From an uncultured Gemmatimonadota bacterium (GTDB lineage Bacteria > GCA-2686955), in contig CAZBBK010000060.1 of NCBI GenBank assembly GCA_964490075.1, positions 1 to 38,414 on the forward strand: a DNA stretch of 38,414 bases, in the 5' to 3' direction. A model generated the notes under the pieces. That model was not told the origin of the DNA. It made no database searches and was given only the letters and a program-made list of their open reading frames with translations. Below, piece after piece: positions 397 to 38,088 of this stretch; the first letter of the stretch is position 1; each line of letters opens with the position of its first letter. The position numbers were made by a program, and so were the translations under genes.

Positions 397-2109
397 TCAC
401 TGGTCTCGGTCGCTCGAAACGTCGAATCTCCGCTCCCATTGGTGCTCACATTCCGCGCTGTGATCGAGAGTCCATACAACACTCTGCTCCATGAAGTACG
501 AGCGATCGTTCGCGCCGCCGACCGGCCAGGTCCTCCGAAAACGCCAAATGGGCCGAGTGCCCTCACCTTGAGCGTCGGCGCCTGGTCCGATCGTCGCAGA
601 CCGGGCGCCACGGCCTTCCCCGCCCGGCGGCGAATTCGAGATTGCCGACTCCGTCGACCCTGCCCCTCGGTGGGGCGGACTCGGAGCGGACGGAGATCGT
701 GGCGCAGGGATGGGGTCTGCTCGCACATCGGATCCAGCGTCTGGCGCGCGGTCCCCGGAGCGTTGCGGCCTTGGGCCATCGATCGGTTCCCGTCGTTCTC
801 GCGGCGCGGCGGAAGGGTGGAACTGGGTGTCGCCCACGATCTCCGTTGCGCCTGGCTCCTCGTCCTCATGACGTGGCCACCCCGCTCGCGATCTCTGCCC
901 CTCCACTCCGCGCCGCCCGATCGCCGGCTCCCTCTGGGGGAAGACCGATGGCGGTGCAGCTGCCCCGGGCAAAGACCCCACTCCGGGCGACAGACTACCG
1001 GGAAGAAGCGCTCGCGTATCAATCGCAATCGCGCCAGGAGGCAACACCGGCATGCCGTCCGCCGGGCTGCGCACCGCGAGGGGCCCCCGGCCGAGCACAT
1101 GCGTGTAGACCATGGTCGTGCGCAGATCGGCGTGCCCAAGCAACTCTTGAACCGTGCGGATGTCGTAGCCGTCCTCGAGCAGATGCGTCGCGAAGCTGTG
1201 ACGAAGGGTGTGGCAGCTCGCCTTCTTCTGCAGATCCGCCGCTCGCACCGCGTGCGCCATCGCGCGCTGCACGACGGTCTCGTGCAGATGATGTCGGCGC
1301 AGCTCCCCCGTCTGCCGATGATGGTAACGGCGCGTCGCCGGGAACACCCATTGCCACTTCCAGGAGCGACCGATGTCTGGGAACTTACGGGCCAATGCGT
1401 CGGGAATCTCGACCCAGCCCGCGCCCTGCTCGAGATCTCGCTCATGCTGAGCACGAACCGCCTCCATGTGCTGTGCCAGAGGGATCTGCGCCGCGCCGGC
1501 AAGCAGTGTGACTCGGTCTTTGTTGCCCTTGCCTCCACGAACCGTGAGCTGTCGCGCGGCGATGTCTACGTCCTTGATCCGCAGGCGGAGGCCTTCGAGC
1601 AGACGCAAGCCTCCGCCATAGAGGAGCAAAGCGACCAGGCGCACCGACCCCTCGAGCCGCATGATCACCGTCGCAACCTCCTCGCGTGAGAGCACCACCG
1701 GGAGGTGCTGGGCGCGCTTGGCCCGCACCAGATCCTCGAAGTCCTCCAGCTCGATCTCCAGTACGTTCCGGCACAGGAAGAGCAGCGCCGCGAGCGCCTG
1801 ATTCTGAGTCGAGGCTGAGACCTGTGCCTCGACTGCCAGTGCCGAGATGAACTGTGTCACCTCCTCGGCGTCGATCCGGTCTAGGTCCGACCACCCGCGA
1901 AAGTGGAGGAATCGCCGAACCCACTGCCAGTACGCCTTCTCGGTCTTCCGGCTGTAGTGGCGGATGCGGATCGCCGCGCGAAAGGCCTCTCGAAGCCCGG
2001 GCTCGCCGCCTGCGCTCCCGGTGCTGCCCGGTTCCATCGGCACCCGCCGCGGATTCCTGCGATCCGCGCCTTCCACCCACCGCTTGCGACTCTGCGACTC
2101 GGGCCTCAT
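397..2109 (-). CDS. intI: integron-type tyrosine recombinase (IntI family) with a ~215-aa low-complexity C-terminal extension
   Basis: Translation contains [22 protein letters not shown], the catalytic R (GLRLLEG), K (RGGKGNKDR), [12 protein letters not shown] and [16 protein letters not shown], plus the IntI-specific extra segment [22 protein letters not shown]...RRHHLHE. Strong SD (GGAGAGGAAACCAGAG ATG) at 2109. Alternative start at 2037. No stop where IntI proteins normally end (~1045), so the frame continues to 397. Confidence 0.8.
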
Positions 2110-2690: not shown

Positions 2691-3029
2691 TCAGATCTGG
2701 TGACGCGTCTCCGCACCTCCAATGGTCCTCCCAAGCTCCGTCAACGGTGCACCCAACGTCAGCAAGGTGCGAAACACGAGATCCAAAGAGACCGTTGGGT
2801 CAGCGGCCTCCATCTTGGCTACCTGCGACCGGCTTGACCTCACCAGCCGCGCGACCTCTGTCTGCGTCATGCTCCGCGAGGCTCGCCAATCCCTGACCGC
2901 TGCGGCCGGGGCGATCTTCACGTTCAAGAAGGCCCGTTCCTCTGCCGTCAGATCGAGGAAGTCCTCTGCGCTACCGATCTTCCATCCAGCCTTCTCCAGT
3001 CTCCTCTTCTTGTCTTCTTCTATGCCCAT
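2691..3029 (-). CDS. higA: HigA-like XRE-family HTH antitoxin (112 aa)
   Basis: MGIEEDKKRRLEKAGWKIGSAEDFLDLTAEERAFLNVK...MTQTEVARLVRSSRSQVAKMEAADPTVSLDLVFRTLLTLGAPL is the typical HigA layout: N-terminal extension followed by an XRE helix-turn-helix. ATG at 3029..3027. GC clearly lower than surrounding genes. Confidence 0.6.
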   Translation of the reverse strand: MGIEEDKKRRLEKAGWKIGSAEDFLDLTAEERAFLNVKIAPAAAVRDWRASRSMTQTEVARLVRSSRSQVAKMEAADPTVSLDLVFRTLLTLGAPLTELGRTIGGAETRHQI

Positions 3030-3230
3030 GCTCGCTCGTTGTAGATCCGCGTCATGGGCGCGCAGCCGCTGTCTGCTTGAATCGAGTACAGCTTTCGGGG
3101 TCTTGCCGGTCTTCCTGCTGAACACCGCCGCAATGACGATGGCGTCTTCGTCCATTCGATAGATGATCCTCCGACTCTGGTCGCCATCCTGAATTCGCAA
3201 CTCGCGGCAGCGCGGCGCCTGCGCTGACAT
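3030..3230 (-). pseudogene. remnant of a RelE/ParE-fold HigB toxin (C-terminal ~50 aa only), fused in frame to higA
   Basis: ELRIQDGDQSRRIIYRMDEDAIVIAAVFSRKTGKTPKAVLDSSRQRLRAH matches the ELR...YR...F.KKTQKTP core of Gp49/HigB toxins. The ~55-aa N-terminal half is absent: upstream residues are unrelated and overlap a DNA repeat. No stop codon lies between this segment and the higA ATG (LQRAS-MGIEE). Confidence 0.45.
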
Positions 3231-3282
3231 GAGACGAGAATGCGGCAGGCCCGGCACAGCGATCCTCCACGCAGGAAGCGCG

Positions 3283-3428
3283 GCCGGCACGCGAAGAAGA
3301 GCTGTCGAGACCACCTTCCTACCGCGCCTGGAACCCGGAGGCCCGCGGGCTCCCGCTGGGTCCGCGGTTCTTCGCGGAGTGCGTCGCTCGAGAGGCGCTC
3401 TGTCGAAACCCCTGATCCGGTCCAATCA
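3283..3428. repeat. copy 1 of a ~130-bp repeated element (inverted copy at 37958..38088)
   Basis: The reverse complement of 3283-3408 aligns with 37958-38088 at roughly 85% identity, e.g. CGACGCACTCCGCGA(A/G)GAACCGCGG(A/G)CCCAGCGGGAG(C/T)CCGCGGGCC. Conservation is equal in all reading frames, so it is non-coding. About 17-bp imperfect direct repeats (TCGACAG.GC.CT.TTCG-like) flank an ~80-bp core. Confidence 0.55.
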
Positions 3429-4499: not shown

Positions 4500-6125
4500 T
4501 TACCCCTTCGTCCGAAACGCCCGCGCCCCTCCCAGGCCCAGCTTCTGCATCCGGCTGCGCAGAGTGCTCGGGTTGATCCCGAGCAGCTCGGCCGAGCCGC
4601 CGGCCCCGTACAGCTTGCCGCCGGTCCGCTCCAGCGCCCGCTCGATGTGTTGTCGCTCCGCGTCGCGCAGAGTCGGGAAGGGCTGCTCGTCTTCGAGCAA
4701 AGCGCTGGGTGTCCGGCCCGGCCCCCGCATCACCCCTGCCGCGTCCGCTTCCGCGCCCCCTTCACCGCCCCGGTCGCTCGGCCGGTCCCCATCCAACCCC
4801 AGCTCCAACTCCGGTCCGGAGCTCAAGATCGTCGCCCGCTCCAGCAGGTTGATCAGCTCGCGCACGTTGCCGGGCCAGTCACGCGCCCGCAGCCGCGCCC
4901 CAACCCCCGCGCCGAGCCGCCAGGGACCGCGTCCGGTGCGCCGCGCCAGCTGCTCCAAGAACCCCTCGGCGATCGCCTCGATGTCATCGGGACGCTCGCG
5001 GAGCGCCGGCATCTCGATCGGGAAGACCGCCAGGCGATAATAGAGGTCCTGCCGAAAGCGCTGCTCCGCCACCGCTCGCGGCAGATCGATGTTGGTGGCG
5101 GCGATCACCCGCACGTCGACGCGCAGGCTGCGGTCGCTGCCGACCGGCTCGAAGCAGCCCTCTTGCAGGGCGCGCAGCAGCTTGGGCTGCAGCTCGACCG
5201 GCATCTCCCCGATCTCGTCCAGGAAGAGGGTGCCGCCGTTGGCCGCCTGGAAGCGGCCGATGCGCGCCTTGGTGGCGCCCGAGAAGGCGCCTTTGACGTG
5301 GCCGAAGAGCTCGCTCTCGATCAGGTTGGCCGGCAGGGCGGCGCAGTTGATGCCGATCAGCGGACGGGCGGCGCGCGGGCTCCAGCCGTGGATGGCGCTG
5401 GCCAGCACCTCTTTGCCGGTGCCGGTCTCGCCGGTGATCAGCACCGGGGTGTCGGCGGCGGCCACGGCGCGCGCGGTGCGCACGATCAGGGTCATGGCGG
5501 GGCTGCGGTTGGCCTCCATCATGGCGCAGGCGTCGCGGCGCTCCTCGACCCGCTCCCCCAGGAGCCGGTTCTGCTCCTTGAGCTGCTGGCTCAACCGGCT
5601 CAGCAGCGCCGACTGCTCGCCGTAGCTCATCGCCATCGCCAGGAGCTTGCCGAACACGTCGGCCAGGTCCACCACCTGGGCGGGATACACAGCGCAGACA
5701 CGCCGGTCGAAGGTCATGATCCCGAGGGGACCGGAATGCGCCCGCAGGGGAACCACCATGCAGGAATGCCCGTGCGGCAGGTCGAGCACGCCGTCGAAAG
5801 CGTCGCCATCGCCGTCGCGATGATCGTGCTCGGTGAATGGCCGCGCATGATCCTGCTCCAGGAGCGCGCGAATGCTGGGGAAGCGCTCCAGCTCCAGCAG
5901 GTGGCGCCGCACCGCCGGACCGGCCAGCGACCCGCGCGCCACCCGTACGTGCAGCGCGTCGCCGCGCAGCTCCATGATGGTCGCCAGGTCGTAGGGGACC
6001 AACCGGCCCAGAGTCTCCATCGCCTGGCCCAGCAATTCGTTCACCTGCTCGACCGACGTGGCCAGCCCGGCCGCCTGACGCAGATCGCGGGTCAGATCGA
6101 GAATCGTCTTCGAGGATGGAACCAT
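4500..6125 (-). CDS. sigma54-dependent transcriptional activator, GAF-AAA+-Fis-HTH architecture, no receiver domain
   Basis: [15 protein letters not shown] (Walker A), [15 protein letters not shown] (GAFTGA-type sigma54 contact loop), C-terminal [21 protein letters not shown] (Fis-type HTH), N-terminal ~170-aa GAF-like domain. SD GGGAGGGAGAC ATG at 6125. Alternative ATG at 6140. Confidence 0.85.
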
Positions 6126-10287: not shown

Positions 10288-12705
10288 TCAGCGGTAGCGC
10301 ACCTCGATCGCATCGAGGCGGAAGATGGCGCCCGTCGACTCCGGGCGCTGCTCGCCGCGGACGCGGATATCGAGCAGGTGGAAGCCGTCCACCAGACTGT
10401 CGGCGGCGGCGATGGTGCGTTGCAGCTCGAGGCTGTCGGCGTAGGTGTCGACGGATGCCAGAAGGGCGTGGTCGAGGTAGATGTCGACCAGGCCCTGGTC
10501 GGGGCCGCGCAGGCCGATCACGCGCACGCCGATGCCGTCGAAATGCATCCGCGCGCGGGCGTCGGGTTGGTCGGAGAAGGCGTAGCCGCGCTTGATGCAG
10601 CCGGGCTGGACCGCGCGGCCCCAGCTGCCGCTGGGGACGATCGGCTCGTCGCGGGCGTCGTCGTAGATCTCGTGGGTGCTGACCACCGACCAGTCGGCGC
10701 CGCCGTCGGTGGAGCGCAGGAGCCCTTCGAAGCCGCCGAGGAAGAGGGTCGAGTCGGATGGGAAGGCCGGGCTGAGCTCCAGCCAGCTGGAGCTGACGGC
10801 GTCGTCGCAGGGGCTCGAGACGCGTCCCCAGCTCTCGCCGGCGCCGGTCGAGCGGTAGACCCCGTGCGACATGGTGGTGGCCAGGATCGTGCGGTCGGTG
10901 GCGAAGCCGGGTGAGAGGGCGAGGTGGGTGGGGCGCGCCGGGTCGAGACCGGCGCCGCGCCGGCTCCAGGTCTGGCCGTGGTCGGTCGACTTCTGGAAGC
11001 CGAGGGTGTCGGTGAGGGCGAAAGCCAGGCCGGAGACGGAGAAGTCGGGGGCGAGGGCGAGCTGCAGGTAGGCGTCGACCGGGCTGGCGGTGACGCTCCA
11101 GCTGCGGCCGCCGTCGGTGGAGCGGTGCACGGCGGAGGTGGAATCGGGTCCGGCGATGAAGAGGGTAGAGTCGACCGGGAAGTCGGGCGAGAGCGCCAGC
11201 TCCCAGAAGCGCCCGGGCGGGGGGTCGGGCAGCCGCGGCCAGGTGGCGCCGCCGTCGGTGGAGCGGTGCAGCTTGGTGATCTCATGCACGCTGAAGGCGT
11301 AGATGGTGCGGTCGGTCGCGTAGCCGGGTGAGAACTGGATGCCGCGGATCGCGTTGCGCTCGATCAGCGAATCGGGCGGTGGGATGGCGACGTGGGTCCA
11401 GGTGAGGCCGCGGTCGACGCTGCGCTGGATTCCGCCGCTGGTGCCGCTCAGGATCAACGAGTCGGCGGCGAACTCGGGCGAGAAGACCAGGGCGTTGGAC
11501 GACATGCCGGCGTAGTCGGTGATGCGCACGTCCCAGCTCGAGCCGCCGTCCTGCGAAATGCTGAAGGGCATGCCGTAGCCGGTGTAGGCGACCACGGAAT
11601 CGCTCTCGAAGGCGGGCGAGAGGGCGATGCGGTGGCCGAAGCGGGTCGGGTTGATGTTGGCCTGGTGCCAGCTATCGCCACCGTCGAAAGAGCCGTAGAG
11701 ACCCTCCATGGTGCCGCACAGGACCAGGGGCGGATCGGGGTAGGCGCGGGCGAGCTCGACGTCGAGGTAGTGGACGCTGACGCGGTCCCAGAGCTTGACC
11801 GCCAGCGGCGTGTGCTGCCAGCTTTCGCCGCCGTCGCGCGAGCGGTAGAGCCCGGCCTCCTTGGTGGTGACGAAGAGCTCGGGCGGATCGGGGAAGGCGG
11901 GGGCGGCGGCGATGTCGGTGCAGTAGAGCTCGGCGAGACCGACGTTGATCGGCAGGAAGGAGGCGCCGGCGTCGGTGGAGCGCAGCACGCCCTGGTCGAG
12001 GGTGGCCAGCCACAGGGTGGGGTTGGTGGCGTAGTCGGGGGCGATCTCGAGCGCCGCCACGACGGCAGCCGGCAGACGGGTGATCCAGGTGGCGCCGCCG
12101 TCGCCGCTGATCCGCAGGGTCGAGTCGGAGAGGGCGAGGGCGACCGTGGAGTCGGCATCGAAGCGGTCGGAGACCTCGAGCACCTCGATCTCGGGCGCGA
12201 GAGGATCGAGGGGATCGCCGCTCTCGAAGACCGAAAGAGTCGACAGGCCGCCGTCCGCGGAGCGGTGAAGGGCGTGGGAGGAGGCCGCGAAGAGGCCGCG
12301 TCCGCCGCCGGCGAAGCGCGGCACCGCGAGGTGCTCCAGGCGCTCGGGACCGATCGGCGGCAGCCAGTGCTGGCCGCGATCGAGCGAGGGCTGCAGCCGC
12401 CCCGATCCGGTCAGGATCCAGGCCACCCCGGAGGTGTCCCAGTCCGAGGCCGCGACGATTCCGTCGGCCCGATCGGAGAGGGCGCCGCAGCGCGACTGGC
12501 GCCAGGTCTTGCCGGCATCCTGGCTGCGCAGCAGCACGTTGCTGGTGCCGGCCGACCCGACCAGCAGGGTGCGGTCGAAGGCGAACTGGGGGCTGATCGC
12601 GTAGCCGTCGATGATGTCGTGGGGGTGGTGGGCGTGCGCCGGGCGCGGCGCGGCGGCGGCCAGCAGCGCGGCACAGACGGCGAGAAGCGACGGCGAGCGA
12701 GACAA
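10288..12705 (-). CDS. secreted BNR/Asp-box repeat protein, probable double beta-propeller
   Basis: About 13 S-x-D-x-G-x-(T/S)-W repeats (STDGGATW, SRDGGESW, SQDGGSSW, STDHGQTW and others). TTG start with SD GGGGGA gives the signal peptide MSRSPSLLAVCAALLAAAAPRPAHA. Confidence 0.75.
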   Translation of the reverse strand: MSRSPSLLAVCAALLAAAAPRPAHAHHPHDIIDGYAISPQFAFDRTLLVGSAGTSNVLLRSQDAGKTWRQSRCGALSDRADGIVAASDWDTSGVAWILTGSGRLQPSLDRGQHWLPPIGPERLEHLAVPRFAGGGRGLFAASSHALHRSADGGLSTLSVFESGDPLDPLAPEIEVLEVSDRFDADSTVALALSDSTLRISGDGGATWITRLPAAVVAALEIAPDYATNPTLWLATLDQGVLRSTDAGASFLPINVGLAELYCTDIAAAPAFPDPPELFVTTKEAGLYRSRDGGESWQHTPLAVKLWDRVSVHYLDVELARAYPDPPLVLCGTMEGLYGSFDGGDSWHQANINPTRFGHRIALSPAFESDSVVAYTGYGMPFSISQDGGSSWDVRITDYAGMSSNALVFSPEFAADSLILSGTSGGIQRSVDRGLTWTHVAIPPPDSLIERNAIRGIQFSPGYATDRTIYAFSVHEITKLHRSTDGGATWPRLPDPPPGRFWELALSPDFPVDSTLFIAGPDSTSAVHRSTDGGRSWSVTASPVDAYLQLALAPDFSVSGLAFALTDTLGFQKSTDHGQTWSRRGAGLDPARPTHLALSPGFATDRTILATTMSHGVYRSTGAGESWGRVSSPCDDAVSSSWLELSPAFPSDSTLFLGGFEGLLRSTDGGADWSVVSTHEIYDDARDEPIVPSGSWGRAVQPGCIKRGYAFSDQPDARARMHFDGIGVRVIGLRGPDQGLVDIYLDHALLASVDTYADSLELQRTIAAADSLVDGFHLLDIRVRGEQRPESTGAIFRLDAIEVRYR

Positions 12706-27287: not shown

Positions 27288-27313
27288 CGGTGGGGGCCGG
27301 GGATGGGTTGTTG

Positions 27314-27329
27314 AGTGTTATATAACACT
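27314..27329. promoter_or_regulatory. perfect 16-bp palindrome AGTGTTATATAACACT; candidate GntR operator
   Basis: Self-complementary as read. AT-rich island in GC-rich DNA. Followed by two more ACACT half-sites (27334, 27342). Lies 27-42 bp upstream of the GntR ATG. Confidence 0.5.
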
Positions 27330-27356
27330 AGTACACTCGAACACTGGAAAGGTCAA
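27328..27356 (-). promoter_or_regulatory. sigma70-like promoter for GntR-SPFH: -35 TTGACC, 17-bp spacer, -10 TACTAG
   Basis: Minus-strand reading ...TTGACCtttccagtgttcgagtgTACTAG.... The operator palindrome overlaps the -10 and the predicted transcription start. Confidence 0.35.
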
Positions 27357-27610
27357 TAGGGAAAACAGACCTTGGCCGGTTCCCGTTGAAAAGCGCGGCA
27401 TCGCCCCCGGCCTCGGGGAAGATCGCGCGGCAGGGCGCTCGGGCCGCCGCCGGTCCCTCCGCCTCTTGGATGCGCGCCCGGTGCCGGTCACCGGCCGCGA
27501 CCGGATCACCAGGCCCGGGCGTCCGTCGATCTCGCCGGCGCGCGGCGTTGCGGCGCTTGCGCGGTCAGCACCGGAAGAGCCTCGCGCGAGGGAGCCACGA
27601 CCGCGCAAGT

Positions 27611-27830
27611 GTCACAACTCGGCACTCTCGGGGAAGAACGCCGAGCTACGACCGTATTTCCGTCATGACTCGCCACTCTCGATCGAGAATCGCTGGTTAC
27701 GACGCGAATACGGTCGTGGCTCCGGTTTCATCGCGATGAGTAGCGAGTTGTGACGGATATACGGTCGTAGATCCGCACTCTCGATCGAGAGTGGCGAGTT
27801 GTGTCGCGAAAAGGCGTCATGACTCGCGGT
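27611..27830. repeat. mosaic of nested inverted and direct repeats: a ~145-bp imperfect palindrome centred on TCGATCGA at 27680-27687, plus a second partial unit centred on CACTCTCGATCGAGAGTG (27776-27793)
   Basis: GTCACAACTCG (27611) pairs with CGAGTTGTGAC (27745), with a third copy CGAGTTGTGtC (27795). TACGACCGTAT (27648) pairs with ATACGGTCGTg (27708) and ATACGGTCGTA (27759). GTCATGACTCGC occurs at 27662 and 27817. Central 18-bp palindromes lie at 27674-27691 (16/18) and 27776-27793 (perfect). Confidence 0.55.
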
Positions 27831-27999
27831 TCCGGGCGCGGAGCTGGGCTTTGTGTCGGGGCAGCGCGCGGGGATCGTGGAGCCTCGCGTGGGCTGGGCA
27901 GAGGGCCGCGAGCAATGCGGGCGGTCGATGCATGGTCATCGTGGTCTCCCGGTCTTTCGGTCCCGAGTCGATGGGCGCGAGATCCGGCGCGAGCAAACC

Positions 28000-37834: not shown

Positions 37835-37957
37835 GGTGTACTCCTCGGTGGTTCGATTCGGCGGCTCGAGAGCCTGGGACGTCGCGTTCCGAGGTGGGTG
37901 GCGAGTCGCGCTTGCTGGGAGCGAGCCATCCTACAACACCGGGGAAGCCGCTAGTTC

Positions 37958-38088
37958 GGGCGTTTCGATATGGCGCTTCTCGGGCGACGCACTCCGCGAG
38001 GAACCGCGGGCCCAGCGGGAGTCCGCGGGCCTTCGGGGCTCCATGCGCGGTTGGGGGGATGTTCTCGACAGCGCTTCTTCGCGTGCCG
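37958..38088. repeat. copy 2 (inverted) of the ~130-bp repeated element seen at 3283..3428
   Basis: About 85% identity to the reverse complement of copy 1. Flanking 17-bp direct repeats TCGATATGGCGCTTCTCG and TCGACAGCGCTTCTTCG. A short direct-orientation fragment (CCCCTGATC...CCAATC) recurs at 38127-38166. Confidence 0.55.

Follow-up and report, generated by a model that had tools for sequence, protein, structure and literature searches.

A previously undescribed G+C-rich interspersed repeat family, probably of the MITE/REPIN type, in an uncultured marine bacterium

Two ~130-bp sequences that lie in inverted orientation, 34.6 kb apart, in the DNA of an uncultured bacterium belong to a previously undescribed, G+C-rich interspersed repeat family of an already known kind. 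The stretch analysed, hereafter the window, is a contig of 38,414 nucleotides, and both of its copies probably belong, as core-only members, to a non-coding, lineage-specific family of MITE/REPIN type. That the pair is inverted and spaced by 34.6 kb is incidental and without functional meaning, and the effect of the repeat copies on neighbouring genes, if any, would be incidental as well. The window sequence corresponds to JGI 3300009128 Ga0118727_1003486, and was also assembled in several samples of one study and in a Logan run. The two window copies are the following.

3285..3415, plus strand: copy 1, a core-only (5'-truncated) member (nhmmer against a three-copy profile, E 1.8e-39)
37956..38088, minus strand: copy 2, core of the repeat family (nhmmer E 2.2e-39)

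Copies 1 and 2 align with 85-87% identity over 133 columns (BLAST E 2e-37 to ~1e-37), and the gapped alignment contains two 1-nt indels. This bears out the original prediction, which had described an inverted pair of ~130 bp at ~85% identity. A repeat search of the window returned the match as two arm pairs, 3334-3415 / 37956-38037 (82 nt, 87% complementary) and 3285-3313 / 38060-38088 (29 nt, 93% complementary). Because the next-best long-range repeats of the window reach at most 47 nt at ~74%, the match is far above chance; longer pairs come from palindromes clustered locally at 27591-27803. Conservation between the two copies is the same in all six frames, and every reading frame is broken by 1-2-nt indels among the copies, which shift the frame. 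The repeat is therefore non-coding, and the pair was rightly taken for a DNA or RNA element rather than a gene. A six-frame translation of both window copies, concatenated into one query meant to catch spurious ORFs called over other copies, had no match at E <= 1 among 5.8 billion proteins.

Copy 1 covers only profile positions 149-278 of the long form described below. It is flanked by the stop of a DUF1016-like gene (3461, minus) and by a truncated higB-higA fusion (start 3257/3155, minus), with 28 nt between the start of the copy and that of the higB-remnant ORF (3257), and 130 nt to the HTH/higA start (3155). Copy 2 lies in a divergent intergenic region, between the acyl-CoA dehydrogenase gene (start 37834, minus), which starts 122 nt downstream of the end of the copy, and a doubtful ORF (start 38297, plus), which is arginine-rich and probably spurious. 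The distances to genes given in the original prediction thus hold. Beyond its core, copy 2 comprises ~10 nt more (GGGCAGAGGCAG), reaching ~38100, and its BLAST alignment to copy 4 begins 11 nt upstream of the core. The alignment suggested that copy 2 might reach further into the 5' part, yet this stretch had an E-value of 4.1 on its own and is not claimed.

The higB-higA fusion is worth a separate remark. In 2691-3257, the C-terminal part of a Gp49/HigB toxin is in frame with a higA-type HTH antitoxin, and the N-terminal half of the toxin is absent. The truncation point abuts the truncated copy 1.

Additional copies were found further along the same chromosome. A walk to the right began from near-identical variants of window proteins, which led to contigs L097 and L104 past the right end of the window, and continued by exact protein look-ups through contigs L103, L111 and L119. 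It extended ~33 kb past the right end in the same organism, and, counted in window-equivalent coordinates, covered ~71.6 kb in total. A profile search of the walked contigs retrieved two extra copies, 12 and 19 kb past the window, and none in the last 10 kb of the walk.

L103 11032-11299, minus strand: copy 3, long form, between the urocanase start and a divergent 84-aa gene
L111 16337-16601, minus strand: copy 4, long form, between a TPR gene and a divergent DUF433/PIN-like toxin-antitoxin pair

The four copies, with nhmmer E-values of 1e-33 to 1e-41, are all intergenic, and three of them lie in divergent intergenic regions; copy number is an extrapolation from these 71.6 kb. Core identity is 82-89% in all six copy pairs. 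Among the core substitutions, 22 are private to one copy and eight are shared, a star-like divergence of the sort expected from dispersal from a common source and not from local duplication. The presence of two copies outside the pair supports the idea, already raised in the original prediction, of a repeat family of the small, non-autonomous mobile-element type. It also runs against the refuting condition set there, of only two copies genome-wide. The apparent bracketing of the core region of the window by the pair is a coincidence.

Two toxin-antitoxin pairs are located at most 3 kb from copy 4, one of DUF433 with a PIN-like DUF5615 protein and the other of PhdYeFM with PIN (L111 16642-17192 and 18730-19367). 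Counting the higBA remnant beside copy 1, two of the four repeat copies adjoin toxin-antitoxin modules. The walked DNA also includes a glycoside hydrolase family 92 gene of 209 aa (L103 1518-2147), vs 761 aa in the related MAG GCA_002686955.1 (L116 7688-9973), and the gene is therefore truncated in this organism.

The unit of ~130 bp is not the whole element but the core of a longer form. Copies 3 and 4 are ~265 nt long (profile matches of 265-268 nt) and consist of a ~135-nt 5' part and the 131-nt core; they share ~110-135 nt more 5' of the core, with 78% identity across 240 nt, a part missing from both window copies. At its outer end, the 5' part repeats the 3' end of the core in reverse complement (14/14 nt exact, ~24 nt imperfect), and the long form therefore has terminal inverted repeats, with GGGGTTTCGAYATGGCG-type ends. 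In the window, the right terminal repeats were located by end alignment.

3389..3412, plus strand: right terminal repeat of copy 1 (CGAGAGGCGCTCTGTCGAAACCCC)
37959..37982, minus strand: right terminal repeat of copy 2 (plus strand GGCGTTTCGATATGGCGCTTCTCG)

The reverse complement of the copy 1 repeat, GGGGTTTCGACAGAGCGCCTCTCG, resembles the left end of the long copies (copy 3: GAGCTTTCGACATCACGGGCCTCTACG). Likewise, the left end of copy 4 reads GAGGTTTCGATATGGCG... and the right end of copy 2, reverse-complemented, reads GGCGTTTCGATATGGCG...; the exact 14-nt run GTTTCGATATGGCG is common to both, and none of 2000 shuffles reached 14. Only the two long copies carry a left end; in both, it matches, imperfectly, the right ends of all four copies taken as reverse complements. 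When the ends were compared by gapped local alignment, significance was not reached (z <= 2.4). Within the 5' part, the middle has a weak match to the 5' end of the core in reverse complement (nhmmer E 0.017). Judged from these alignments, the long form amounts to an inverted doublet, imperfect and bounded by terminal inverted repeats. The best-conserved block of the core is a central G+C-rich hairpin, placed in the window copies as follows.

3340..3363, plus strand: central G+C-rich hairpin of copy 1 (GGCCCGCGG-GCTC-CCGC-T-GGGTC), from folds
38008..38031, minus strand: central G+C-rich hairpin of copy 2, from folds and alignment

The short direct repeats of ~17 bp noted in the original prediction (CTGTCGAGA.. 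/ CTGTCGAAAC) do exist. Their reading as target-site duplications was ruled out, since both are internal sequence conserved in all four copies, and one of them is the right terminal repeat. No target-site duplication was found by eye or by script at the full-length copies 3 and 4, whose termini are placed only to about +/-5 nt; the best 5-bp candidate was AGCAT/AGCAC at copy 3, with none at copy 4. In prokaryotic MITEs, target-site duplications wane with age (PMC10969869), and in copies that are 78-89% identical to each other, short ones may have been lost to decay.

Relatives and sequence collections yielded no further members. Among metagenomic sequences, the nearest relatives come from TARA samples (79% amino-acid identity); eight of their dehydrogenase loci were sampled, representing about three distinct regions and some 25-30 kb of non-redundant sequence, and none has a copy. 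These relatives have a short, element-free region upstream of the dehydrogenase in which a TGGTGTAGAAT -10-like motif is kept, and divergence and rearrangement of their intergenic DNA there prevent an empty site from being defined. Copies were also absent from 20.7 kb of the sister MAG GCA_002686955.1 (annotated as Gemmatimonadota), and from the surroundings of dehydrogenase homologues at 80 loci in representative genomes (1.3 Mb; best homologue 65% identical, so that none of these genomes is closely related). Plasmid and phage collections, searched by blastn with the full-length element, likewise lacked it. Exact and partly degenerate patterns found no member in GTDB representatives, JGI metagenome contigs and viral contigs, collections that do not hold the window's own contig; three pattern matches in the JGI contigs were A+T-rich chance matches. 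Were the family equally dense in the relatives, their sampled DNA should hold about three copies. With none found, the family looks, tentatively, lineage-specific. All contigs spanning a copy site carry the copy, and no empty site or insertion polymorphism was seen among the strain contigs compared, which are at least 99.9% identical.

The motif upstream of the dehydrogenase, which is extended -10-like (TGGTGTAGAAT / TTGGGTAGAAT / GTTGTAGGAT), occurs both here and in the 79%-identity relatives, as well as upstream of urocanase, and is probably a local promoter type.

Window ~37930-37942; L095 ~985-1000; L089 ~4800-4815; L103 ~10985-10995: extended -10-like motif

The position of some copies relative to genes raises the question of a regulatory role, which the original prediction had allowed for as a shared cis-regulatory module or structured RNA. 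A protein-binding platform, a leader or a small RNA upstream of catabolic-gene promoters would agree with the placement of copies 2 and 3, which have the same orientation to the downstream gene, with 3' ends 122 nt and ~100 nt upstream of the acyl-CoA dehydrogenase and urocanase start codons, and which are directly followed by TAGGAT/TAGAAT -10-like motifs. Divergent promoter regions, furthermore, hold three of the four copies. However, copy 1 is oriented the opposite way and faces a convergent gene at its 3' end, 450 nt separate copy 4 from the gene toward which it is directed, and the relatives keep the dehydrogenase -10 motif without the element. The folds point in the same direction. The consensus folds of two, three and four copies had no covariation in the core: with all four sequences, the covariation term was positive, several pairs were broken and none was compensatory; in the central hairpin, one substitution is wobble-compatible on the forward strand only and another on the reverse strand only. 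Compensatory changes occur only in one hairpin of the 5' part, between copy 2 and copies 3/4, though the copy 2 stretch is not significantly homologous there on its own (E 4.1). Rfam, searched with the whole window, gave no family match at the gathering score, and around copies 1 and 4 only sub-threshold noise at E <= 10. An ARAGORN search was negative, and scans of the window copies and their flanks for sigma-70-like promoters and intrinsic terminators came back empty. A sigma-54 promoter was also considered for the CGGCAC 5' end and ruled out by eye, as the GG-N10-GC spacing is absent there. Taken together, we consider a regulatory or RNA function unlikely as the explanation of the family.

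A further alternative, in place of a classical MITE with target duplications, is a REP/REPIN origin, in which palindromic units are multiplied by a RAYT (an IS200/IS605-like tyrosine transposase) and core-only copies are singlets derived from inverted doublets. As in REP/REPIN and BIME sequences, the repeats are G+C-rich, palindromic and intergenic, with an inverted-doublet layout, singlet remnants and no target duplication; the long form can be read as an inverted, partly deleted doublet, albeit on the weak internal match (E 0.017), and the genome has a separate, BIME-like palindrome cluster. Yet the typical REP unit measures 20-40 nt, far less than the 131 nt found here, and the 71.6 kb read showed no RAYT gene; this origin is rather improbable. 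Far more remote are two readings suggested by the layout of the window. Copy 1 is 1.2 kb from an integron integrase, beside a toxin-antitoxin remnant of a kind common in cassettes, and, like an integron attC, it is a ~130-nt imperfect palindromic repeat near the integrase gene. That the repeats are attC-like recombination sites of this integrase is nevertheless effectively refuted. RYYYAAC...GTTRRRY pairs 40-160 nt apart, scanned in the window plus 139 nt, are missing at and around both copies, and with them the R''/R' boxes and the attC geometry; the only attC-like motif pair of the window is a chance one inside higA. Single-strand DNA folds of the window copies are no more stable than shuffles (z 0.06 to 0.94), the attI-like junction is on the other side of intI from copy 1, and copies 2-4 lie 36-55 kb from the integrase, the family being dispersed over at least 55 kb. 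The attC reading is thus barely credible, and the link to an integrase island made in the original prediction is incidental: the integron integrase is present, but the repeat is not its attC. It is equally hard to believe that the pair arose by local duplication or marks where 34.6 kb between the two window copies was inverted, although these are mutually inverted and near both contig ends. Such an origin is refuted by copies 3 and 4, which lie outside the pair, and is at odds with the star-like divergence. Moreover, twelve distinct contigs from several samples cover copy 1 or 2 (five of them end in or beside a copy); all are colinear with the window in the overlap, and the inverted junction is in none, so that an invertible segment finds no support.

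The MITE/REPIN-type family that we favour agrees in most respects with described prokaryotic MITEs, such as the Correia elements of Neisseria and the QMITEs of Coxiella (PMC10969869, PMC3184786). Size range, inverted-repeat length and the occurrence of truncated members are as published (PMC10969869). MITEs are shorter than ~500 bp and have no coding capacity, and the copies here measure 131-268 nt; they occur as multiple dispersed, intergenic copies, here four in 71.6 kb of contiguous sequence; and their terminal inverted repeats span ~4-30 bp, here 14 of 14 nt exact and ~24 nt imperfect, at z <= 2.4 in the gapped test. Stem-loop potential and the coexistence of full-length and truncated members are shared as well. 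On the other hand, the repeat is ~70% G+C, whereas MITEs are A+T-rich, no target-site duplication was detected, mobility is putative, and no related insertion sequence was seen in the DNA read.

Other known repeats resemble the family less. ERIC (127 bp, enterobacteria) and BOX (boxA-B-C, pneumococcus; PMC3049150) are similar in size, in modularity (a 5' part plus core, or the core alone) and in their intergenic position, often near promoters, but they have no sequence similarity to it, come from another phylum and differ in module structure. The Tn3-derived TIMEs have ~40-bp inverted repeats like those of Tn3-family transposons and 5-bp direct repeats (PMC4133298). They share with our family a length of 200-300 nt, and two of the four right ends here begin with GGGG; by contrast, the inverted repeats here span ~24 nt, and no 5-bp duplication is common to both full-length copies. 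A comparison of the ends of copies 3 and 4 accordingly does not place the family among the TIMEs.

How such a family could have arisen can be sketched from its members. A transposase acting in trans would, at some time in the past, have spread copies into intergenic DNA, and no autonomous partner or transposase was seen within the ~71.6 kb read. The full unit could form a long imperfect hairpin through its imperfect terminal inverted repeats. Full-length copy 4 folds with z = -4.97, its two ends pairing into a long hairpin, and full-length copy 3 with z = -1.6. The copies would then have decayed independently, with some, including both window copies, losing the 5' part. At copy 1, a single deletion may have taken both the N-terminal half of the toxin and the 5' part of the element, which fits because copy 1 abuts the truncated higB toxin gene.

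The left end of the window deserves attention in its own right. Gene 397-2037 (minus) is the integron integrase (TIGR02249, 413 bits vs a cut-off of 265). To its right follow a 131-aa ORF, the higA-type HTH/HigB fusion, copy 1, the DUF1016-like gene, a sigma-54 activator and then housekeeping genes. The integrase ORF runs ~190 codons past the family model, whose match ends at residue 353 of 570; this tail (397-1020) is of low complexity, lacks the third-position G+C signal seen in 1020-2040, and may be untranslated or degenerate. About 340 nt downstream of the ORF, a strain-variable junction lies at 52|53 (minus strand ...TAAGAGTTGTT|...). In a comparison of L123 5335-5427 with L001-L005 and L102, six contigs continue beyond it with CGGCCGACTTCGGGCAGCC... 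and one (ENA ERZ23498639 scaffold_41482) with GAACGGAACCCCCTTTGGGG... The break is exactly after GTT, as in an integron attI/cassette junction, and a cassette array would, from this position, sit left of the window and be oriented like intI (an 'inverted' integron layout). All assemblies end 0-139 nt from this junction.

Right after the variable junction, positions 1-62 (continued at L004 6760-6822) form a strong 62-nt imperfect palindrome, GTTCGGCCG..GCCTTTCCCC GTG GGGGAAAGGC..CGGCCGAAC, with the outer ends GTT/AAC and not in attC geometry. Further out, at L004 6869-6889 (~57-77 nt left of window position 1), GATCAGGGGTTTCCACAAGAG matches the right end and flank of copy 1 (3397-3416), reverse-complemented, in 20 of 21 positions. 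Beyond it come more A+T-rich DNA and a possible ATG before the assemblies stop. This sequence could be another terminus related to the family, or even the end of an autonomous element. It is quite improbable, though, that the ends of the family match an undescribed transposable element at the left contig break, or that the family was taken over as a promoter-proximal module co-regulating catabolic genes (acyl-CoA dehydrogenase, urocanase). If true, the module would be a binding platform or an upstream structured transcript in an uncultured marine lineage, and the transposable element would lie beside an 'inverted-layout' integron.

A second, unrelated repeat family is represented by the palindrome cluster of the window. 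At 27591-27900, within the intergenic region 27288-27999, palindromes of about CACAACTCGCCACTCTCGATCGAGAGTGGCGAGTTGTG and TACGACCGTAT..ATACGGTCGTA alternate in a BIME-like manner. Another copy of the cluster (L097 3505-3740; 94.5% identity over 236 nt, direct orientation) is located ~500-730 nt past the right end of the window, and the cluster is the likely cause of the assembly breaks on the right side. GAGTTGT is common to the ends of these palindromes (ACAAC...GTTGT) and the attI-like junction, perhaps by chance. On a JGI contig (3300007511), the region right of copy 2 is joined to different DNA (L098 1-1208 vs L104, window-equivalent >38775), namely Chlam_PMP/beta-helix genes, beside the palindrome cluster; this junction reflects either structural variation or an assembly that became chimeric across the repeat. 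Logan contig L008, in turn, ends within copy 2, at 38013.

Beyond annotation, the importance of the family is little. Its profile could serve for binning or strain typing, and inverted repeats near contig ends should be checked for copy number before they are read as island boundaries or as an invertible segment. For the breaks at the ends of the contig analysed here, the palindrome cluster on the right and the strain-variable junction on the left are better candidates than the repeat. What the four copies add is a newly documented interspersed repeat in an uncultured marine bacterium, whose nearest named relative is a TARA Oceans Gemmatimonadota MAG, and repeats of such a kind may add to the fragmentation of this organism's metagenome assemblies.
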